Source: a virus
Virus record (IMG/VR): IMGVR_UViG_3300002138_000067
Location: 1 to 40,811 of that record
Length of the DNA: 40,811 bases
Direction: 5' to 3' (one strand)
Made by a program: the position numbers and the translations under genes. A model generated the notes under the pieces. The model did not search any database. It was not told the origin of the DNA and saw only the letters and a program-made list of their open reading frames with translations. Below are positions 2,292 to 39,426 of this stretch, piece by piece. Positions within the stretch are counted from its first letter, which is position 1. Every line of letters begins with the position of its first letter.

Positions 2292-5200
2292 ATGGCAAAT
2301 CTAACTGTAGAACAGTTTGGAGCAACGATAAAACAGAAACACCCACAATATGCGAATGTTCCTGACTATGAGCTGGGCAGGGCCACACTACAAAAGTACC
2401 CACAGTATCAGAGCCAGGTTGAAGTTGCAAAAGATTACAACGTACCAGAAATCCCTGGTGCGAAGGCTAATCGTATTGCAGAGGAGAATGCAAAGCTCGC
2501 CACAGAGGCAAAGCAAGCCAACTCGCCACTAGGGTTCGCTGCAAACTTCGGTAAAGCACTTGTCTCTAATCTCGTACCAAGTGAGGTAGGTCTAGGGCAG
2601 AGTCTACAGAAGATATACGGTAATCAGGGCGCAACATACTCAAAACAAATTGAGCAACTTTCTGGCACTCAGCAGATGACCGCTAAGGCTATCCGTGAGA
2701 AGGAGGCTAAGGGTGGGGATGCAACGAAACTCAAGCAGATTTACAACGACAACGCGACTATGCTTCGTCAGCTTCAAGGCGACTTGAAAGACGAGACGAC
2801 ACTACCCACGACAGGACAGGTCGCTGGACAACTTGGAGGTACGGCTCTTGACCTACTCACGGCAGGTACATACGGAAAAGCAACACAGGGTATGCAGGCA
2901 GGGAAGCTAGCGGTGCAAGGCAAGGCAAGTCTTGGCCTCGCTAACAAAACTGGCATACCATCAAACCTTGTACCCAAGGCAACGAGCAACGTGCCAACTT
3001 TCGCAACCGCAGCAGGTATCCCTGAGCTGGCCCAGATTGCACGACAAAAGTCAGCAGGACTGTTCACAAAGCAGGGACTTGGTAACGTTGCCGTAGGTGG
3101 TGGTATCGGATACGGGTTTGACGTTACACAAGGTCTTCAGGGCAACCGTGGAGAGGAGAGGACAGGTGCTAGTGCATTTATCCCTGGCGTGGGAACTGCT
3201 ATTGGCGCTGGTATTCCAACAGTTGCTGGTGCTTACCAGAGCATTAAGAACGCACGTAACCCTGTGCTACACGCAGACAAGCTTGTACAACAGAGAGCAA
3301 AGGAGCTGGCCAAGCTTGATAGCTACCAACCACTCAAGAAAGCCACGGAAAAGGGACGAGCACGTGGTATAGATGTGCAAAAAGTGCTATCTGAGACAGA
3401 CGTCCTCCACGGCTCGGTGGATAAAACAGGCACCATAACTACTAAGGGTGACGGGGGTGCTGTTGAACAGTACACAAAACAGTTTATTGACGGTAACGAG
3501 AAGATTGTGAGCGAGGCACTCAAGAAGGAGGGAGCAACCTATCCACTCGCAGCGGTAAGGGAGCGTCTACTCGCTGCTGTTGATAAGGCAGGACTGGAAG
3601 GCGAAGCACTTATTAAGGCAAAGAACGCTGTTGAGCGTGAGGTGCGTGGCTATGCACTACGAGCTGACGCAGCAGGGAATGTGCCACTATCTGTCGTGCA
3701 TGATGCAAAGATAAACAAGTACAACAACATCAACTTCTTCGCCAGCGGTAACTCAAAGACCTACGACAAGACTGTTGCTCGTACCTTAAAGGATATTGTG
3801 GAGGAGACAAGCACCGCAATAGATGTGAAAGCCACTAACGCTGAACTGGCCAAGCACTTCGCTGTTATTGACTACCTCAACAAGCTAGACAACAAGAAGG
3901 TAGACGGGGGCAAGCTCGGTAAGTATTTCGCAAGCACTGTGGGGTCAATTGTTGGCTCTCACTTCGGGCCACTAGGTGCCATTGGTGGTGCTGAAGCAGG
4001 AGGACGTATCAAGGGCAATATAATGGCACGTTCATTCTCTGGTAAAACAGGGCGTGTATTTCCACAAGCAGATTCAATAACACAGGCAAAGGCTTTTATG
4101 GAAAAGCCACAACTTGCTCTACCACCAGCACCAGAGGGTGCTCCGAGGAGTTGGATAGGCTCTGGACCCACTATACCCATGGCACCTGCTGGGACTACAG
4201 AGTACGTTGGTACGGGTAAGGCTCTTGGTACTTATGTACCAACACAAAAACCAGGGACCCAATCAGTATTACCAGTAAAGACACAGTTAGCACTTCCTGC
4301 GGTTGGAGAGTCGCCTATACGGCTACCCGCAAAGAATCCAGCACCTGTATTAAACCAGGCGGAGATTGACGCAAAGTATGGTCAATCTAAATCAAATAGC
4401 TTAGGAAGTCGCCAAATAGCCCAGACAACAACCAGTGCTCCTACAACAAATGCCATACCTGAAAGCGTACCACCCAAAAGTGGTAATTCCAAGCCCCTCT
4501 ACGGACTAGCTGGGGGTATCGCACCTGAGACAGACGAGAACGGGAATGTTGTTGGTGTTACCTATAACCCTCTCGGAGCTGTTGTGGGTGTTGGCGCTAT
4601 AGCTGGAGCAGGCAAGTTGAAGGGTGTAGGGAAAGGAAAGACAGCCCCTAAAGTATTTGAAGGTTTCGCTGACCTCTCTACAAAGCTCCTAGAGAAGCTA
4701 AAGGGACGTTCTTCTGTGTCTAAGCAGTTTATTTCTGACCTCACTAACTCTCCCGACCTCAAGCAGACAGAGAAGGATTTGGTGCGCCGTATTTTGGATG
4801 AGGATAGTGGTACGAAGGCATATCACGGGACTAATGAGACATTCGACAACTTCGACACGTCAAAACTCGGCACAAACGAAAAGAACCACGCCGCAAAAAA
4901 TGCTTTCTTCTTCTCTGACAGCAAGCAAACTGCTGGGACATACGGAAAGACAGTCAAGGAGGCACAACTAAAGTTCGATAACCCTGTAACAATAGACGCT
5001 GAAGGGAAGATGTTTGGCGATGTACGAGACTTGATTGACGAAACTGTACTCACGGCAAAAAAGAACGGGAACGATGGCGTAATCATAAAGAACCTAAGCG
5101 ATGAGAAGGACTGGGGTGTCTACAATCCGACCACCCACTATGCAGTTCTCGATACAAAAGCAATTAAAGGAGACCAAATAGACGTACCTACTTTCGCAGA

Positions 5201-6455
5201 GAAAGTGAAGGCAGAGTTGCTGCCTCTTACCACAAAGAAGTCGAGTCTAAACTCAACGGCTTCGGGAGCTGGGAGGTATGAGGGTGTAAATCTACCAGAC
5301 GAACTACGTGGCCCCGTTGCAAACTATGAAGAACGGATTTACCAATCCCCCGTAAAAACAAGTGCGGGAGATGTACATTTCGGTGGCGAGAATGCAGACA
5401 ACTACTTCGGACACACCCGCGTAGAAGACCTACCAGACCTTTCACCAGAAGAAGCAAAACTTTTGAACGATGCTGGAATAGGCATGACCCCTGATATGAA
5501 AGGAACTACCCGCCGTGTCATAGAAGTACAGTCTGACCTGTTCCAGAAGGGACGGTTGGAGGGTGAAGGTTTCAGTAGAGCAGATGCGAGCTCTCCTGCG
5601 TTGAAAGCAGTCGCAACTCCTGAAGAACTGAAACAATGGGAGGCGTTCTCAAAAAAGAATATGGACAACGCCTTATCTCAAACTGAGAAAGAAAATTGGG
5701 ACAAGCTATCAAATACGTTGTTTGAAAAAGCTGGAAGTGACAGAGCAAAAGAAATTTCAAAACTCGAACCCTACAAGAACAACGCAGCACACTTCCGCAT
5801 GATACGTGAGGAGGTAAAACAAGCTGCAAAGGACGGCAAGACCAAACTCCAGTTCCCTACAGGAGAGACTGCTATGAAGATTGAGGGGTTGGGAGAGACA
5901 CCAAACTGGAGAAGAATCTACGACATAGACGGGCGCAGAATCAGCGATAAGCTGGAACTAAGCGACTTAAAGACTGGCGAAACAGTCAATCAAGCGGGAC
6001 AGGACTGGATAATCACAGACGTACTAGGAGACGGGAAGTTTAAGGCTGTGCCGAAGGATAATATGGATTTCCTTTCGGAAGAACTGGCTGAACTTGGTGT
6101 TATGGGGCCAGATGACTTGGGGCCAGCTATAGCTAGAGGAGACAGGCGCGTAGTAGACCTTCTAAATGACGGGCAGACAGCAGAACAGTTCGACATCTCA
6201 GGCAAAGTAGACACAGAGAACCCTATCTACAAGTTCTATGAGAAGGAGGTAGGGAAGTATCTGAAGAACAAGTACGGCGCAGAACTCATAACAGACCCCC
6301 AGGGAGTGAACTGGTGGCAGGTAGATGTGAAGAAGGATTACGCCAAACTACCCGTAGAGGCTTTTGTCGGTATTGGGGCTGTGGGGCTTGGTGGAGCTGC
6401 CGTGTCGTCTGACGAGAAGAAAAAGACCTCATTCCCCAAGAGCAAATCGCAGTAA
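2292..6455 (+). CDS. Giant (1,387 aa) virion-associated polyvalent / ejection-type protein with an ART-like central domain
   Basis: Largest ORF. N-terminal tandem K-x-PQY motifs. Gly/Ala-rich hydrophobic segments (GLGNVAVGGGIGYGF, GAVVGVGAIAGAG). Central block AYHGTNETFDNFD...NAFFFSDSKQTAGTYG. Downstream HTRVED...RRVIEVQSDLFQKG. It sits among tail genes, as podoviral internal proteins do. Confidence 0.55.
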   Translation: MANLTVEQFGATIKQKHPQYANVPDYELGRATLQKYPQYQSQVEVAKDYNVPEIPGAKANRIAEENAKLATEAKQANSPLGFAANFGKALVSNLVPSEVGLGQSLQKIYGNQGATYSKQIEQLSGTQQMTAKAIREKEAKGGDATKLKQIYNDNATMLRQLQGDLKDETTLPTTGQVAGQLGGTALDLLTAGTYGKATQGMQAGKLAVQGKASLGLANKTGIPSNLVPKATSNVPTFATAAGIPELAQIARQKSAGLFTKQGLGNVAVGGGIGYGFDVTQGLQGNRGEERTGASAFIPGVGTAIGAGIPTVAGAYQSIKNARNPVLHADKLVQQRAKELAKLDSYQPLKKATEKGRARGIDVQKVLSETDVLHGSVDKTGTITTKGDGGAVEQYTKQFIDGNEKIVSEALKKEGATYPLAAVRERLLAAVDKAGLEGEALIKAKNAVEREVRGYALRADAAGNVPLSVVHDAKINKYNNINFFASGNSKTYDKTVARTLKDIVEETSTAIDVKATNAELAKHFAVIDYLNKLDNKKVDGGKLGKYFASTVGSIVGSHFGPLGAIGGAEAGGRIKGNIMARSFSGKTGRVFPQADSITQAKAFMEKPQLALPPAPEGAPRSWIGSGPTIPMAPAGTTEYVGTGKALGTYVPTQKPGTQSVLPVKTQLALPAVGESPIRLPAKNPAPVLNQAEIDAKYGQSKSNSLGSRQIAQTTTSAPTTNAIPESVPPKSGNSKPLYGLAGGIAPETDENGNVVGVTYNPLGAVVGVGAIAGAGKLKGVGKGKTAPKVFEGFADLSTKLLEKLKGRSSVSKQFISDLTNSPDLKQTEKDLVRRILDEDSGTKAYHGTNETFDNFDTSKLGTNEKNHAAKNAFFFSDSKQTAGTYGKTVKEAQLKFDNPVTIDAEGKMFGDVRDLIDETVLTAKKNGNDGVIIKNLSDEKDWGVYNPTTHYAVLDTKAIKGDQIDVPTFAEKVKAELLPLTTKKSSLNSTASGAGRYEGVNLPDELRGPVANYEERIYQSPVKTSAGDVHFGGENADNYFGHTRVEDLPDLSPEEAKLLNDAGIGMTPDMKGTTRRVIEVQSDLFQKGRLEGEGFSRADASSPALKAVATPEELKQWEAFSKKNMDNALSQTEKENWDKLSNTLFEKAGSDRAKEISKLEPYKNNAAHFRMIREEVKQAAKDGKTKLQFPTGETAMKIEGLGETPNWRRIYDIDGRRISDKLELSDLKTGETVNQAGQDWIITDVLGDGKFKAVPKDNMDFLSEELAELGVMGPDDLGPAIARGDRRVVDLLNDGQTAEQFDISGKVDTENPIYKFYEKEVGKYLKNKYGAELITDPQGVNWWQVDVKKDYAKLPVEAFVGIGAVGLGGAAVSSDEKKKTSFPKSKSQ

Positions 6456-17949: not shown

Positions 17950-18777
17950 TTACTTTATGTTGATAAACGGTACGTTTCCTCCTGTCACTTGTGGTAGTAC
18001 GCCATTCCACTTTTCAATAGCACGAAGTTCAAGCACTTTTGGGTTAGAACTAATCGCTACTGATTCAACACGTAGAGCCTCTGCGCGTCCCTTAGCGGAT
18101 TCAATAGCCTGCTTTGCCTCGTACTCTACCTGCGCGAGTTTGTTCTTAGCTGCAAGAGCGTTCTGCTCAGCTGTCACCTTCGCTTCAATTGCTTCGTTGA
18201 AACTCTTAGAGAAGTCGAAGTTAATGATTGAGAAGTTCTCTACTACGATTCCACTAGGGGCTAAACGAGTAGCCAGAGCGAGTCGTATGTCTTCCTTTAC
18301 CTCCTCACGCTTCGTAATAAGCTCTTCAGCTGTAAACTTTGCAGTTGATGCTTTAACCGATTCCTGAATTGCTGGGTCTATAAGGCGTGTCTTATACTCA
18401 ATACCAACATTCTGGTACAGGTTTGCAACGCTTTCGTGCTTGATAGAGTAGTTTAGAGCAACCTGACTATTTACGGTCTGTAGGTCTTTTGATGCTGCGC
18501 TCGCTGCTGTCTCGTCTTTTTGGGTCTTAACATCAAGGATAAATACCTTTTCAATGAATGGCATTTTTACATACAACCCCTCGCCAATAACTCCCTCTGT
18601 CACCGCTCCAAATCGTGTCTTTACACCTCGCTCACCAGCACCAACAGTGCCAAATGAATTGAACAATAGAACTAGAACAACGATTAGCGATACTGCGTGT
18701 GCTGCGATTTTTACGAAGTTGGGAATCAAAACTTCCTGCCCATAAGAGTTAGTACCTTTCTTTGTGTAGTTGAACAT
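17950..18777 (-). CDS. SPFH / Band-7 / prohibitin-family membrane protein
   Basis: N-terminal TM (IAAHAVSLIVVLVLLF). SPFH core (GERGVKTRFGAV...YVKMPFIEKVFILDVKTQ...TVNSQVALNY). C-terminal Ala/Glu coiled coil. Confidence 0.85.
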   Translation of the reverse strand: MFNYTKKGTNSYGQEVLIPNFVKIAAHAVSLIVVLVLLFNSFGTVGAGERGVKTRFGAVTEGVIGEGLYVKMPFIEKVFILDVKTQKDETAASAASKDLQTVNSQVALNYSIKHESVANLYQNVGIEYKTRLIDPAIQESVKASTAKFTAEELITKREEVKEDIRLALATRLAPSGIVVENFSIINFDFSKSFNEAIEAKVTAEQNALAAKNKLAQVEYEAKQAIESAKGRAEALRVESVAISSNPKVLELRAIEKWNGVLPQVTGGNVPFINIK

Positions 18778-26008: not shown

Positions 26009-26039
26009 TAGTTATTTTGTTTTTCAAAAGTGGTCGACA

Positions 26040-26076
26040 CACGGTGGCTTAGGTAAGCCACCGTGTTTTTTATTTT
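26040..26076 (+). terminator. Rho-independent terminator after the replication operon
   Basis: 11-bp stem CACGGTGGCTT / AAGCCACCGTG, loop AGGT, then TTTTTTATTTT. Confidence 0.85.
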
Positions 26077-26400: not shown

Positions 26401-26504
26401 GTTCTGTGTTTTTGGGGGGACGCGGGTAATAATTGACTGAGCTGAAATGCGAAGCAGAATAACCGACTAGAGGATTAAGTTCCTTCTCCCCACAAGCACA
26501 GAAC
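26401..26504 (+). ncRNA. Structured RNA domain 1 (104 nt), closed by a 20-position helix
   Basis: 26401-20 pairs with 26485-504: 17 Watson-Crick pairs, 2 G.U, 1 T.C mismatch. No ORF. Confidence 0.45.
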
Positions 26505-26599
26505 ACTAGGTACTTCCACTCCGCGAGCCTACGGGTTCGTGGGTAAGTATTCATTCTCTACGACTTCTCACGAGGAGTCGCGGGGTGGGAGTATCTGGT
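26505..26599 (+). ncRNA. Structured RNA domain 2 (95 nt), closed by an uninterrupted 22-bp helix
   Basis: 26505-26 pairs with 26578-99: 18 Watson-Crick pairs and 4 G.U, no mismatch. Inner hairpin CCTACG-GGTT-CGTGGG at 26528-43. Confidence 0.5.
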
Positions 26600-26606
26600 A
26601 CATAAA

Positions 26607-26861
26607 GTTATTGGGTGTTTTTGGGAACAATTCTTTTGAAGGCTCCAACCAAAGTCACGGCACGCAGAAGCTTGCAAGCGTAGTGAAGGCATTTACTACA
26701 AATCATTTAGGGGTAAGGCGCGGTAGTCAATCCGAGGGGGCCTCTTTATGAAAGAAAGCGTGTGTAGACCATATTTGCGACCTAAACCTGTTGCTGTTGG
26801 AGGAACCGCCGAGGAAGTTGAAAGCACGAAAGGAAGAATTGTCCCACAAGCACCTAATAAT
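26607..26861 (+). ncRNA. Structured RNA domain 3 (255 nt), closed by an approximately 28-bp helix
   Basis: 26607-26/26842-61 gives 19 of 20 paired, including 3 G.U. It continues as 26629-37/26832-40 (9 bp, 2 G.U). The domain contains the palindrome GCTTGCAAGC at 26670-79. Confidence 0.45.
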
Positions 26862-26871
26862 CTAGTACATA

Positions 26872-27051
26872 GTTTCTAGGGTTCTGTTCTGGTGTGGCGG
26901 AATAGGTAGACGCACATACGAGGTCGGCCAGCTTACAGACTACCGATATGCGAGGTGACTATACGAGAATAGGTATCCAGTCCTAGTAGCGGAGATATTC
27001 ACTACGAAATGTCTCGTCAAATCCTCGCCACCAGAACAAAACCCTAGAGAC
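26872..27051 (+). ncRNA. tRNA-Leu-like mimic on a 23-position stem (not a canonical tRNA)
   Basis: 26872-94 pairs with 27029-51 (21 Watson-Crick pairs, 1 G.U, 1 C.A). It is followed by a class-II Leu-type U8-G9 and D arm, TGGCGGAATAGGTAGACGC (26895-913). T-stem GCGAG/CTCGC (26950-54/27024-28) carries TCAAATC loop remnants split by an approximately 60-nt insert. No anticodon arm could be built. Confidence 0.5.
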
Positions 27052-27067
27052 AGAATATAGAAACTAT

Positions 27068-27139
27068 TGGGACGTAGCTCAGCGGTAGAGCGGTTCACTG
27101 TTAATGAATTGGTCGCAGGTTCGAATCCTGCCGTCCCAG
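27068..27139 (+). tRNA. tRNA-Asn: tRNA-Asn (anticodon GUU)
   Basis: Cloverleaf built by hand: acceptor TGGGACG/CGTCCCA; D arm GCTC-AGCGGTA-GAGC; anticodon arm GTTCA-CTGTTAA-TGAAT; T arm GCAGG-TTCGAAT-CCTGC; discriminator G. CCA is not encoded. Confidence 0.9.
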
Positions 27140-27172
27140 CCGTGAACTTATTAAATTATTACCGAGAGAAAT

Positions 27173-27412
27173 ATGGAAAAGACTACACTCGTCACGCACT
27201 TGAAGTACGGGAAAGAGGACGAACCCTGGAAGCCAAACCTGCTTACAGCTGTTTTACAGCTTGTACTGGCACCAGTTGCGTTCCTGTTAGGTATTCTTAT
27301 CGCAATACTTATTGTCGTCTATGATTTTCTAGGAATGGGAAGCCAGCATATTGTCTTCCGCGCGACACCAAAGAAAATAGAGATGCCTGACGGCACAATA
27401 CTTAGTAAATAG
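27173..27412 (+). CDS. Small membrane protein
   Basis: 79 aa with a long hydrophobic stretch LLTAVLQLVLAPVAFLLGILIAILIVVY. Confidence 0.5.
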   Translation: MEKTTLVTHLKYGKEDEPWKPNLLTAVLQLVLAPVAFLLGILIAILIVVYDFLGMGSQHIVFRATPKKIEMPDGTILSK

Positions 27413-37839: not shown

Positions 37840-39426
37840 GTGGCAACCCCAAAGATAATTGCAGATTTTGAAAGCTCGCTAAGCACAGCTGTTGCTATAG
37901 GTGGTACTTCGTTTACCCTGGCCTCAGCAACAGATGACGATGGTGTAGCACTACCCTCTGGACTGTACTACTTTACCGTTGACAATGGCTCCTCTAACAA
38001 GGAGTACCTCTCAGGTACCCTCTCAGGTACCTCAGTCACTTCCGTAGTATCCGTATCCCGTCAAGGCACAGAGACTTCAGGAGCAGCACGTGCACACCGT
38101 GTGGGAGCCTCGGTAATCATTACCGACTTCGCTACCTACAAGAAGTACATGGACGGTATCGCTCTGGTATCAGCACCAGACGCAGACACCAACACTAAGG
38201 GTGTATCAGAGCAAGCTACACAGGCAGAAGTGGACGCTGGTACTACTACAGGCGGTACTTCAGCAAACCTTTTCGTAAACCCGTCAACAGTACGTGCTAA
38301 GAACTACAACGACTACGTTGCAGACACAGGCTCAGCAGACGCTTACGCAATCGCCCCGTCTCCTGCAATCACAGCATACGCAGCAGGACAGGTATTCACG
38401 TTCAAGGCAGTAAACGCAAACACTGGAGCTTCAACGCTTGCGGTGAATGGTCTTGCGGCGAAGTCCATAGTTTTGACAGGCGCAATTACAGCAGGACAGA
38501 TTGTTCAGGTTGTGTATGACGGAACAGATATGCAGATGCTTAGTTCAGGTCCTGACTCCTCGTTCGGAGATGGTTCTGATGGTGATGTAACGATTTCAAC
38601 ACCAACAACCCTTACACGTGACATGTACTACAACAATCTTGTTGTAACTGATACTCTCACGACAAACGGCTTTGCTATTTACGTTAAGGGCACAATCTCA
38701 GGCGTTGGCACAATTAAATATCCAACAGGCACCGCAGGAGGGAACGCAAGTGGGCAGACAGAAGGAACGGCTGGTACTGCAATCACAACAGGAAGATTTA
38801 GGAATATAGCAGGAGGTGTTGGCGCGCAAGGTAGAGCTGCTACTTCTGGCTCCACGGCTGGAGTAGATGGAACCATAGGTGGTGCAGCAACACCGTCAGG
38901 TGGGGTTATTGGAGGCGCTGGTGGCAACTCTGCATCAGGCGGGGCAGGTATTGGAACAGGGGGCGCTGGTGGTGTGGTTACTGCACCGCTAGTAAAAATT
39001 GGGGCATTCCTAATGACTACGATTTTTGGCCTTGATATTGCCAATACTGGAGTACCACTAAGTTTGGTAGGCTCATCTGGGGGGGGTGGTGGTGCTGGAG
39101 GCTCATCTGGAGGTGGTTCTGTGGGCGGCGGTGGCGGCGGCGGTGGTGCAAGTGGTGGCATCGTGTTTATCGTTGCCAACATTTGGGCTGGGACATTTAC
39201 CATACAAGCAATTGGTGGTGCAGGTGGTGCAGGGTCGACAGGAAATGGAAATGGTGGTGGTGGTGGTGGTGGTGGTGGTGGAGTGTCAATCGTCTTCTAT
39301 AGAACAAAAACATGGTCTGGTTCTTACGTCCTGACAGGAGGTGCTGCGGGCGCCACTGGTGGTTCAGGTGCATCAGCAGGAAACGCTGGCACAGTAGGGG
39401 CATCTTATGAAATCTCTGCAAAATAA
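37840..39426 (+). CDS. Tail fibre protein 1 with a Gly-rich C-terminal domain
   Basis: Fibre motifs TNTKGVSEQATQAEVDAGTTTGGTSANLFVNPSTV and NANTGASTLAVNGLAAKSIV. The C-terminal 250 aa are rich in GGxGG, with G8-G10 runs. Confidence 0.8.
   Translation: MATPKIIADFESSLSTAVAIGGTSFTLASATDDDGVALPSGLYYFTVDNGSSNKEYLSGTLSGTSVTSVVSVSRQGTETSGAARAHRVGASVIITDFATYKKYMDGIALVSAPDADTNTKGVSEQATQAEVDAGTTTGGTSANLFVNPSTVRAKNYNDYVADTGSADAYAIAPSPAITAYAAGQVFTFKAVNANTGASTLAVNGLAAKSIVLTGAITAGQIVQVVYDGTDMQMLSSGPDSSFGDGSDGDVTISTPTTLTRDMYYNNLVVTDTLTTNGFAIYVKGTISGVGTIKYPTGTAGGNASGQTEGTAGTAITTGRFRNIAGGVGAQGRAATSGSTAGVDGTIGGAATPSGGVIGGAGGNSASGGAGIGTGGAGGVVTAPLVKIGAFLMTTIFGLDIANTGVPLSLVGSSGGGGGAGGSSGGGSVGGGGGGGGASGGIVFIVANIWAGTFTIQAIGGAGGAGSTGNGNGGGGGGGGGGVSIVFYRTKTWSGSYVLTGGAAGATGGSGASAGNAGTVGASYEISAK

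Follow-up and report, generated by a model that had tools for sequence, protein, structure and literature searches.

The segment at positions 26872–27051 (+ strand) of the window, by which we mean the whole analysed stretch of 40,811 nucleotides (IMG/VR virus record IMGVR_UViG_3300002138_000067), is almost certainly a member of a large, conserved family of non-decoding, structured phage RNAs derived from tRNA-Leu. This family has an architecture of its own: it is not in Rfam 15, is missed by tRNA finders and is unannotated in the GenBank records examined, and no description of it was found in the literature searched. Sequence inspection located every part that the initial annotation of this DNA had recognized, each in its place, and the element (with the gene that follows it) is composed as follows.

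26872–26894 / 27029–27051, + strand: long stem of 23 positions, with one C·A mismatch (26884/27039) and one G·U
26872–26887, + strand: 5' strand of the extended helix, 16 nt, partner 27036–27051 with one C·A mismatch
26888–26894, + strand: 5' strand of the acceptor stem, TCTGGTG, 7/7 paired with 27029–27035
26895–26896, + strand: U8-G9 connector, invariant in the 45-sequence and 27-sequence alignments
26897–26913, + strand: D arm of the tRNA-Leu type, GCGGAATAGGTAGACGC, with a 3-bp stem GCG/CGC and an 11-nt loop GAAUAGGUAGA
26914–26949, + strand: central region in place of the anticodon arm, 36 nt, irregular
26950–26955, + strand: 5' strand of the T stem, GCGAGG, 6/6 paired with 27023–27028
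26956–26962, + strand: U54 and the conserved junction strand GACUAU that opens the T-loop insert (in the long-insert class this strand was set by the search patterns, so that its invariance there is not independent evidence)
26963–26967 / 27013–27017, + strand: T-loop insert helix ACGAG/CUCGU, with compensatory changes in relatives
26968–27012, + strand: variable interior of the T-loop insert, 45 nt, enclosed by the ACGAG/CUCGU helix (insert block 26963–27017)
27018–27022, + strand: 3' part of the T loop, CAAAU (C56 A57 A58 A59 U60), common in sequence to all recovered T-loop variants, a sharing on which the inclusion of TCAAATCC in the search patterns bears
27023–27028, + strand: 3' strand of the T stem, CCTCGC, partner 26950–26955, directly abutting the acceptor 3' strand
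27029–27035, + strand: 3' strand of the acceptor stem, CACCAGA, partner 26888–26894
27036–27051, + strand: 3' strand of the extended helix, with a base-paired A at position 73 and no encoded CCA
27068–27141, + strand: canonical tRNA-Asn(GTT), called by ARAGORN and scored at 74.6 bits by the Rfam tRNA model

Most of the architecture read initially from the letters was borne out, including the 23-position stem with TCTGGTG/CACCAGA in the acceptor position and the U8-G9 connector preceding a tRNA-Leu D arm. Taken together with the preceding TG, this arm differs by a single base from that of E. coli tRNA-Leu(CAG), TGGCGGAATTGGTAGACGC, a sequence confirmed in the annotated tRNA-Leu genes of 5426 out of 5426 genomes. 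Two readings had to be refined. The T stem, described as GCGAG(G)/(C)CTCGC abutting the acceptor strand, does so as a stem of 6 bp, and the T-loop insert of about 60 nt proved to be exactly 60 nt long (26957–27016, separating T at 26956 from TCAAAT at 27017–27022) and to be far from featureless, consisting of the GACUAU junction followed by a helix. Folding of the window RNA yielded a minimum free energy of −71.4 kcal/mol (z = −5.4), with equally good folds in 0/200 shuffles, and a fold consistent with the family lies within 3 kcal/mol of this minimum. As initially described, folding gave only an irregular hairpin for 26914–26949; this region consists of a single-stranded linker ACAUACGAG, a hairpin GUCGG/CCGAU (26923–26927 / 26943–26947) and A-U48.

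The failure to build an anticodon arm (5-bp stem, 7-nt loop) in any register was likewise upheld by the silence of ARAGORN and by the lack of a conserved sequence at that place. ARAGORN and Rfam runs, suggested initially as a check, revealed no normal tRNA on the element, only its neighbour: ARAGORN on the window called the tRNA-Asn at 27068–27141 and nothing on 26872–27051; Rfam 15 gave no match on the element at gathering thresholds nor at E≤10; and RF00005 failed to match it even at E≤10, the adjacent tRNA-Asn scoring 74.6 bits. No tmRNA was called on the element by ARAGORN or the Rfam tmRNA models, and no Rfam ribozyme or intron family matched it; an insert of 60 nt is too short for a group I intron. 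The tRNA-Asn(GTT), which begins 17 nt downstream on the same strand, is probably a co-transcript of the mimic and not a part of it.

With exact-motif scans, 130 distinct copies having this architecture were collected from viral contigs, MAGs and metagenomes (the scans yielding 40, 61 and 14 loci from IMG/VR, 12 MAG contigs and at least 120 metagenome stretches); the motifs themselves prescribe portions of the T loop and D arm, whose apparent invariance is inflated accordingly. A lack of conservation in relatives had been named at the outset among the refuting conditions; the 130 homologues keep the helices by means of compensatory changes. The acceptor stem is 7/7 paired in 106/130 copies, with 118 different 5' strands among the 130, and G7-C66 is kept in 42 of the 45 aligned sequences. 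Across this 45-sequence alignment 84.6% of the cells are paired compared to ∼38% in slid controls (the observed values were reached in 0/500 shuffles), and double changes occur in 28/37 tested pairs, including all 23 pairs of the combined helix (acceptor plus extension). G·U pairs are also present in the stems. Beyond the acceptor stem, the ungapped pairing among the 130 members is 0.65–0.83 over ∼14 positions, 0.58 and 0.52 at positions 15–16, and ∼0.35 from position 18; the length of the long helix is constrained to ∼22–23 bp, and its sequence is not conserved. The T stem is 6/6 paired in 120/130 copies, with covarying versions such as GCAAGG/CCTTGC, GCAGGG/CCCTGC and GTAGGG/CCCTAC. Pairs of the D stem covary as well (GUG/CAC, U..A); an exact 19-mer from the D-arm region, TGGCGGAATAGGTAGACGC, is shared by 67/130 copies, and G19 is absent from some variants of the D loop. 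At position 73, which is usually base-paired, 61 of the 130 copies have A, 27 T, 26 C and 16 G, and in none of them was a CCA found to follow.

The family was defined by a covariance model (R1) comprising the acceptor stem, U8-G9, a D arm of the Leu type, a variable centre ending in U48, a 5–6-bp T stem and a T loop of the form U(G/U)[insert]CAAAU. This model scored the window at 126.3 bits over 26872–27051 (the window being part of the training set) and independent members at 102–120 bits; with scores of 30–81 bits it also covers every T-loop variant and the copies from isolated phages, with no match to three true tRNA-Leu genes in one of the carrier contigs (L129) or to the T4 tRNAs. The variants thereby linked have a normal T loop, a 4-nt or 9-nt addition, or a long insert. 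The same UGAC opens both the +4-nt (UGACUUCAAAU) and the +9-nt (UGACAGAAAUUCAAAU) versions, and versions from Firmicutes phages have the T loop UGCAAAU. Compensatory versions of the insert helix were observed as ACTCT/AGAGT (L200), ACAAG/CTTGT (L201) and ACAGG/CCTTGT (L202), enclosing an interior that ranges over 21–53 nt across the family and in which no conserved motif was found. A pairing of D-loop AUAG with junction CUAU was considered and found to be unsupported, as GACUAU stays unchanged in copies whose D loop has A16, and insert-free versions show these D-loop variants too.

The central region that takes the place of the anticodon arm is hypervariable and 26–204 nt long, and k-mer enrichment in central and insert regions gave nothing above shuffles. 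Its last base is U in 124/130 copies, which fits the Levitt partner (U48) of A15, both being conserved in the family. In 22/63 copies the T stem is preceded, at a distance of exactly 2 nt, by a hairpin that resembles a class II variable arm, and in the Bacillus-phage subgroup this hairpin is backed by compensatory changes. Extra T-arm-like hairpins appear in the centre of some members (e.g. L081, L083, L138 and L182). Near-identical phages, with flanks of 93–97% identity, carry unrelated central cassettes, as do the loci L120 and L173. Complementarity was no higher between the centre and insert of one molecule than for non-cognate pairs, and the best matches of the variable parts to their own genome, determined in the window, were 9 nt and 13 nt long, lengths that lie in the range of shuffles. 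These hypervariable regions could also be mere unconstrained spacers. Overall, judging by its sequence, this RNA cannot decode.

The family is common in environmental phages, and the hosts of its carriers include Saccharibacteria, Proteobacteria, Planctomycetes, Bacteroidota and Firmicutes. The covariance model linked to it unannotated copies in Bacillus phages phi3T, Goe3 and SBSphiJ1 as well as in Enterococcus, Lactiplantibacillus and Bacteroides phages; the element was also found in Herelleviridae phages. BLAST of the window against isolated phages returned the tRNA-Asn only and no close genome relative. The element is accessory. It was absent from 80 loci around related TerL genes (by blastn, a fuzzy D-arm search and a covariance-model search), which makes synteny uninformative; its genome position is not conserved in two relatives that carry it; and one phage contig has two copies (L091 and L156). 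In the window the element follows a strong terminator (26039–26066) and precedes the genes of the small and large terminase subunits, and in phage H1-Guo it is likewise upstream of the small terminase subunit gene. Neighbouring long ORFs are mostly on the strand of the element in 50/64 loci; like the G·U pairs in the stems, this speaks for a strand-specific element that works as RNA. Clustering of neighbour proteins from 68 loci revealed no conserved partner, the commonest family being present at 7/68, and no TROVE protein was found among the scanned window ORFs. The neighbour families include YopX, ERF, integrase and a family annotated as NinG/Rap in the BS-TP2 GenBank record, as is typical of accessory and recombination regions in phages. 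In Enterococcus phage phiSHEF16 a phage tmRNA gene is immediately followed, on its 3' side, by the RNA, and where the RNA sits among tRNA genes (L129, L130, Herelleviridae) the long stem is missing. Many carriers of roughly 40 kb have no tRNA gene within 5 kb of the element, which implies a role other than supplementing codon usage.

Non-coding RNAs that mimic tRNA are no novelty, Y RNAs, tmRNA and viral tRNA-like structures being known examples. The present element is close in design to a class II tRNA-Leu of bacteria and phages, sharing with it the 7-bp acceptor stem with G7-C66, U8-G9, the normal order of arms, a 3-bp D stem with the 11-nt loop GAAU(A/U)GGUAGA, U48, a variable-arm-like hairpin beside the T stem and a T loop ending in CAAAU. 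It differs in having neither an anticodon arm nor an encoded CCA, in the usual pairing of position 73 within a 22–23-bp helix, in its 6-bp T stem, in a T loop that is interrupted or carries G55, and in being invisible to tRNA finders. The tRNA-like domain of tmRNA is likewise a mimic without an anticodon, whereas the present RNA has a full D stem of the Leu type and G3·U70 in only 2/130 copies. The small stable RNAs species 1 and 2 (rnaC, rnaD) of phage T4, annotated in its tRNA cluster, were considered as relatives, rnaC having a T-arm-like hairpin, and were rejected as unrelated in sequence: no sequence or model similarity was found, the two RNAs having no Leu D arm and the T4 locus no R1 match. 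To our knowledge, the function of these two T4 RNAs is still unknown.

The initial annotation had listed a decoy, a processing handle and a ligand of a tRNA-binding enzyme among the options for a tRNA-derived RNA; its view of the nature of the molecule is upheld (a conserved, covarying, non-decoding RNA), and its function is something that we infer. The best overall explanation, offered tentatively, is that this class II tRNA-Leu mimic, which does not decode, is processed and then engages some tRNA-binding factor of the host. The mimic keeps what builds the core and elbow of a tRNA (the acceptor stem, U8-G9, the Leu D arm, U48 and the T arm), the anticodon arm being replaced by a hypervariable linker and a variable-arm-like hairpin, with an extra conserved junction and helix at the tip of the T loop in the window subtype. 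The RNA would be co-transcribed with its neighbours, and the 22–23-bp flank helix would serve for processing and stability: an enzyme of the RNase III type would cut it and tRNA end-processing enzymes would then trim the ends, in a manner comparable to rRNA excision. The freed L-shaped mimic may then bind a host factor that recognises tRNA-Leu, or class II tRNAs, by the body of the molecule and not by its anticodon. Action through host machinery is suggested by the lack of a common neighbour protein (7/68 loci at most) together with hosts from many phyla. The preferred partner would be a nuclease or toxin that is triggered by infection and directed at tRNA, and on which the RNA could act as a decoy or competitive inhibitor, leucyl-tRNA synthetase (LeuRS) being the alternative partner; the decoy mechanism itself is possible rather than probable.

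A precedent is provided by the defence systems retron-Eco7 and Septu, which cut the variable loop of class II tRNA-Tyr, and against which the tRNA-Tyr of phages T5 and T6 was proposed to be a "decoy or supplement" (PMC13096335). These are also phage-encoded RNAs of the class II type, and it is their variable arm that decides the outcome (PMC13096335); unlike them, complete and decoding as they are, the mimic is non-decoding, which would leave it only the role of a decoy or inhibitor. The swapping of cassettes between near-identical phages is the pattern expected in an arms race. A broader form of the same idea, in which the family would be a widespread class of anti-defence RNAs, decoys or inhibitors of nucleases and toxins that attack tRNA bodies or variable arms, with variable-arm and elbow cassettes possibly exchanged by recombination in an arms race, appears rather doubtful to us; if true, it would amount to a widespread RNA-based counter-defence missed by current annotation. 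A decoy would need to compete with abundant host tRNA. The T-loop insert, placed at the elbow where LeuRS, RNase P and others dock, might block rather than favour such contacts.

Several alternatives have to be weighed. Occurrence within co-oriented gene blocks, the position of the window copy between the terminator at 26039–26066 and the terminase genes and of the H1-Guo copy ahead of the small terminase subunit gene, as well as a helix length held at ∼22–23 bp regardless of sequence, would also be expected of a cis-acting punctuation element that separates and stabilises phage mRNAs at an early/late gene boundary, its helix and tRNA-like head being only a site for RNase III, RNase P or RNase Z and the excised RNA being functionless. 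This reading is unlikely, as a processing signal has no need of the near-invariant Leu D loop, U48, T-loop junction and extra helix; copies inside tRNA clusters lack the long stem, the position is not conserved among relatives, and most close relatives are devoid of the element. Still less probable is an RNA that, after end processing and CCA addition, is bound and partly leucylated by host LeuRS, either titrating this enzyme or serving as a source of Leu for some reaction off the ribosome. Recognition by bacterial LeuRS is independent of the anticodon, and in vitro even tRNA-Leu derivatives devoid of the anticodon arm can be charged; the D arm is that of a bacterial tRNA-Leu, A15 and U48 are conserved, and A is the commonest base at position 73 (47%). 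In the remaining 53% this base is not A, and the isolated-phage copies have C, T, A and T there; the position is usually paired and CCA is not encoded, so that leucylation is not a general property of the family; G19 is moreover missing from some D loops and the T stem has 6 bp instead of 5. We see only a small chance that the tRNA fold is a scaffold for variable modules (antisense seeds or aptamers in the centre and insert), with the core providing just stability and processing. Two hypervariable modules within an invariant core, cassettes swapped between near-identical phages, and the additional T-arm-like hairpins of L081, L083, L138 and L182 speak for it; on the other hand, matches of the window's variable parts to its own genome are at chance level (9 nt and 13 nt), cognate complementarity between centre and insert does not exceed non-cognate, and no motif is shared.

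The comparison with YrlA made in the initial annotation holds as an analogy only. YrlA/Yrn1 and the present family alike mimic tRNA without decoding, have arms of the D and T kind and the potential for tertiary pairs, occur in phages, and possess a long terminal stem and no free CCA end (PMC4201824). A Y-RNA-like scaffold, whose long stem (formed by the flanks next to a tRNA-like module, as in Y RNAs generally; PMC4201824) would tether Ro60/Rsr or some other protein to an effector, is nevertheless very improbable. In YrlA the arms are permuted (T arm, closed acceptor stem-loop, D arm), the ends of the RNA lie at the position of the anticodon stem and the gene adjoins that of Ro60 (PMC4201824), whereas the mimic has the normal order of acceptor, D arm, central region, T arm and acceptor, and neither a TROVE protein among the scanned window ORFs nor a conserved neighbour protein was found. 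The motif GNCGAAN0-1G, marked as conserved in YrlA/Yrn1-type Y RNAs (PMC4201824), is absent from the long stems of 130/130 copies (including the window), which have no common sequence, and Rfam gave no match. The lowest probability goes to a tRNA-Leu that is functional and has an intron in its T loop, to a tRNA pseudogene in decay and to an attP remnant, despite the tRNA-like acceptor, D and T arms and a tyrosine integrase gene near 4/68 loci. When the insert was removed in silico, ARAGORN in intron mode called 11/68 members with inconsistent anticodons and left the window copy uncalled, so that the T-loop-intron tRNA proposed initially is not supported; no anticodon arm exists in any register and none is conserved. 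The pseudogene option of the initial annotation is excluded by conservation and by the compensatory changes across helices (28/37 tested pairs). For an attP site the 3' part of a host tRNA would suffice, with no need of a full-length fold that covaries, and the element is found also in Herelleviridae phages. Overall, the lack of a conserved anticodon arm, CCA, Ro60 gene or neighbouring protein argues against a decoding or T-loop-intron tRNA, a pseudogene and YrlA alike.

Knowledge of the mimic's role would help to understand why tRNA-like genes are carried by phages at all, and it would matter for the ever more numerous defences by which hosts target tRNA. Since copies occur in phages of tractable B. 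subtilis (phi3T, Goe3, SBSphiJ) and in Enterococcus, Lactiplantibacillus and Bacteroides phages, this function is directly testable.

The element at 26872-27051 (+) carries every feature ascribed to it in the initial annotation, as laid out below.

26872-26894 / 27029-27051 (+): long stem of 23 positions with one C·A mismatch and one G·U pair; its inner 7 bp (TCTGGTG/CACCAGA) are in the acceptor position
26895-26896 (+): U8-G9, after the 5' strand of the long stem
26897-26913 (+): D arm, GCGGAATAGGTAGACGC
26914-26949 (+): region between the D and T arms, 36 nt
26950-26955 / 27023-27028 (+): T stem, GCGAGG/CCTCGC, abutting the acceptor 3' strand
26956 and 27017-27022 (+): T loop, split into T and TCAAAT by 60 nt

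The tRNA-Leu(CAG) sequence of E. coli used for the comparison proved correct (a 100% match to annotated tRNA-Leu genes in 5426/5426 E. coli genomes), and the D arm of the window copy differs from its D arm by a single base. The fold of the segment has an energy of -71.4 kcal/mol (z = -5.4), and a fold forced into the family structure lies only 2.8 kcal/mol above the minimum free energy. The insert in the T loop (26957-27016) opens with the junction GACUAU followed by a helix, ACGAG/CUCGU. In relatives this helix reads ACTCT/AGAGT, ACAAG/CTTGT or ACAGG/CCTTGT, variant pairs which show that it is real.

ARAGORN and Rfam, two of the standard tools that had been proposed as checks, were run. The sole ARAGORN call in the window is a tRNA-Asn(GTT) at 27068-27141, with no normal tRNA at the mimic, and the only Rfam 15 match was this same tRNA-Asn, whether gathering thresholds were applied or 26700-27200 was searched at E<=10. 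A canonical tRNA is ruled out by the missing anticodon arm and the failure of tRNA models. The YrlA RNAs, which adjoin Ro60 and are marked by a conserved GNCGAAN0-1G motif, are permuted (PMC4201824), whereas the mimic retains the order and topology of a tRNA; with no Ro60 among the window ORFs scanned, and with the motif absent from 130/130 stems, YrlA is likewise ruled out. An identity as tmRNA was rejected, neither ARAGORN nor Rfam 15 making such a call on the mimic. Stable RNAs of unknown function have a precedent in phage tRNA clusters, namely rnaC and rnaD of T4, to which the mimic is unrelated in sequence. Full-text literature searches turned up no account of the family. Overall, the element belongs to a genuine and widespread family of phage tRNA-Leu mimics, one that we did not find catalogued.

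Its extent emerged from motif scans. A search for the D arm followed after a long gap by TCAAATCC found 40 viral loci (ARAGORN tRNA calls in 0/40), many of them sharing the exact T-loop layout of the window copy, GG-TGACTATACGAG-[variable]-CTCG-TCAAATCC. A scan with this layout returned 61 viral loci, at least 120 metagenome stretches, and 12 contigs in GTDB species genomes, all from MAGs and most of ~30-56 kb (including Saccharibacteria, Pseudolabrys, Stellaceae, Pirellulales, Brocadia and Cytophagales). Parsing of the viral, MAG and metagenome matches yielded 130 distinct elements among the matches listed.

Acceptor 5' strands come in 118 different versions among these 130 elements, with 7/7 pairs formed in 106/130, and the 6-bp T stem is fully paired in 120/130, its sequences covarying. 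The D arm is almost invariant across the family, and D-stem changes, where present, are compensatory. A U just before the T stem (U48; 124/130 elements) is the base that a partner of A15 should be. Over the conserved segments of a 45-sequence alignment 84.6% of cells pair, as against ~38% with slid partners; double changes occur at 28/37 pairs of this alignment, and none of 500 shuffles reached the observed values. Beyond the acceptor stem, pairing across the 130 elements stays at 0.65-0.83 over ~14 further positions, with 0.58 and 0.52 at positions 15-16 and ~0.35 from position 18, a profile showing that the helix is conserved in length (~22-23 bp) and not in sequence.

The T loop is found in a normal version (UUCAAAU or UUCGAAU), in versions longer by 4 nt (UGACUUCAAAU) or 9 nt (UGACAGAAAUUCAAAU) and, in phages of Firmicutes and Tenericutes, as UGCAAAU with G at position 55. 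Among isolated phages, unannotated copies are present in Bacillus phage phi3T and in 24 further Bacillus phage records that fall outside the phi3T group and are mostly Herelleviridae (32 Bacillus phage records altogether, carriers including Goe3, Goe7, Goe27, SBSphiJ and 010DV004), as well as in Lactiplantibacillus phage H1-Guo, Hujiaoplasma phage zrk29-2, Bacteroides phage BS-TP2 and Enterococcus phage phiSHEF16, which has a tmRNA immediately 5' of its copy. This tmRNA is itself unannotated (positions 1146-1496 of our phiSHEF16 sequence L187 = OL799260 42399-42749; Rfam RF00023, 130 bits). In phi3T (L186) an Rfam match to DUF3800-VIII RNA (2858-2923; 44.7 bits, gathering score 40.2) is located ~1.2 kb downstream of the mimic copy. 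A covariance model of the family (R1), trained on 27 long-insert members, gave the scores below, where L-numbers denote individual collected loci or sequences.

R1 scores of sequences outside the training set
L200-L204: 102-120 bits
L129: 81 bits
L088: 68 bits
L087: 60 bits
L198: 56 bits
L110 and L188: 51 bits
L187: 43 bits
phi3T: 37 bits
L190, L197 and L189: 30-32 bits

At E<=1, R1 matched neither the window tRNA-Asn, nor the three genuine tRNA-Leu genes in L129, nor the T4 tRNA cluster. A match of 31.8 bits was obtained in locus L130, about where ARAGORN puts a class II tRNA-Ser, so that the weakest members rest on architecture as well as on the R1 score. In four other loci (L133, L137, L157 and L177) the T-arm/insert module matches R1 partially (~positions 92-161) and an upstream Leu D arm is not recognisable; these could be copies that have been truncated or have diverged strongly.

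The stretch separating the D and T arms varies from 26 to 204 nt across the family (median 59), and a search for enriched k-mers in it found none. When the insert was removed in silico, ARAGORN in intron mode called a tRNA in 11/68 copies, the window copy not among them and the anticodons scattered over Met, Leu, Ser, Cys, Pro and Arg, which speaks against the proposal of a tRNA with an intron in its T loop. The central region in many members is a single-stranded linker followed by a hairpin. In 22/63 copies exactly 2 nt separate this hairpin from the T stem, which places it where a class II tRNA has its variable arm; compensatory changes back this arm in the Bacillus-phage subgroup. Taken together, the decoding tests and the make-up of the central region describe a tRNA-Leu body without an anticodon arm. 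An extra T-arm-like hairpin (e.g. GGGGTTCGACTCCCC or GGCGGGTTCGATTCCCGC) lies within the central region of L081, L083, L122, L138 and L182, and in L086/L094 and Burkholderia phage FLC9 (L199) a tRNA-like unit appears to be nested in the Leu-like one.

The mimic is co-oriented with its neighbours in 50/64 loci. No neighbour protein family is common to more than 7/68 neighbourhoods, and those encountered, including YopX, ERF and integrase, are of kinds usual in the accessory and recombination regions of phages. A tRNA gene within 5 kb is absent in 59/68 loci; in tRNA-rich phages the mimic is found within the tRNA cluster and has no long stem. Two different copies, L091 and L156, lie on a single contig. 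The phage flanks of L104 and L198 are 93-97% identical and the acceptor, D and T stems are shared, with unrelated central regions; L120 and L173 share the stem and flanks (closely matching, as judged by eye) and differ in the whole interior. Both pairs indicate cassette exchange within the element. The mimic is a conserved structured RNA of tRNA-Leu origin, strand-specific and non-decoding, and it behaves as an accessory gene in phages of many phyla with no dedicated protein encoded alongside.

The flanking ~22-23-bp helix would serve as a processing and stability stem, a reading based on the conservation of its length but not its sequence and on its dispensability where neighbouring tRNAs give processing sites. 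The released RNA would take up a tRNA-like core: the 45-sequence alignment has no exception to U8, A14, A15 and G18 and keeps G19 in at least 90% of its sequences, U48 stands in 124/130 elements, and C56 and A58 are found in the family, though fixed by the search patterns. Such a core may bind a host factor whose recognition depends on the body of the tRNA and not on the anticodon. We favor a decoy or competitor against tRNA-directed defence effectors, given that the mimic is an accessory, mosaic element, duplicated in some cases, whose class II-type variable arm is hypervariable. Retron-Eco7 and Septu have been reported to cut the variable loop of the class II tRNA-Tyr, an attack counteracted by phage tRNAs (PMC13096335).

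Leucyl-tRNA synthetase is the other obvious partner; general leucylation, however, is unlikely, as the base at position 73 (after the acceptor 3' strand) varies between copies and is as a rule paired, and a CCA is not encoded. A purely cis-acting processing element would leave the invariant D loop and T-loop junction unexplained. Ideas of antisense and intramolecular pairing found no support. Of the original interpretation, the real tRNA-Leu-derived structured RNA has stood, the T-loop-intron tRNA has not, and the decoy is a favored role only. The family is of high interest, being directly testable in model phages.

The window itself is a phage-like genome, circular or terminally redundant, whose unit measures 38,497 bp: its ends repeat at 100% identity (1-300 = 38498-38797), and the ORF pattern recurs at an offset of 38497 to the window end. 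Gene content includes a primase, a DEAD-like helicase, a DNA polymerase exonuclease subunit, small and large terminase subunits, and SU10-type portal and adaptor, along with the following features.

2292-6455 (+): 1387-aa protein with an ADP-ribosyltransferase 'polyvalent protein' domain (ART-PolyVal; PF18760, E = 1.3e-08)
17950-18777 (-): SPFH/Band 7 family protein (E = 1e-34), within the minus-strand replication block
26039-26066: strong intrinsic-terminator candidate, a perfect 12-13-bp GC-rich hairpin with a T run, after a 388-aa gene

The ART-PolyVal gene is followed by a 1048-aa ORF with no Pfam hits. The mimic lies in a ~1.1-kb stretch between the strong terminator and the packaging genes, with only short ORFs, none matching a known phage protein family (PHROG). 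The window ORFs scanned included no TROVE/Ro60, RNA ligase, CCA-adding enzyme or aminoacyl-tRNA synthetase. The 50,697 isolated phage records hold no close relative of this phage. The mimic was not found near the terminase large subunit (TerL) in 80 IMG/VR loci with TerL 64-76% identical to that of the window, some of which have ordinary tRNA genes at the corresponding place; two relatives of the window phage carry it 12-13 kb from TerL.

A second long-stemmed structure (26401-26504, +) lies ~370 nt upstream of the mimic. Its 18-bp stem, GUUCUGUGUUU.UGGGGGG / UCUCCCC.ACAAGCACAGAAC, closes ~64 nt (MFE -41.1 kcal/mol, z = -4.0); it matches neither R1 nor, at gathering thresholds, Rfam, and its arms are similar to those of the mimic long stem. 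The 27 nt at 26488-26514 are 78% complementary to the long-stem 5' strand (26871-26897), i.e. 3'-strand-like, and direct repeats of 11-12 nt occur at 26489/26843 and 26593/26860; this likeness and the repeats could reflect a duplication remnant or an alternative pairing.
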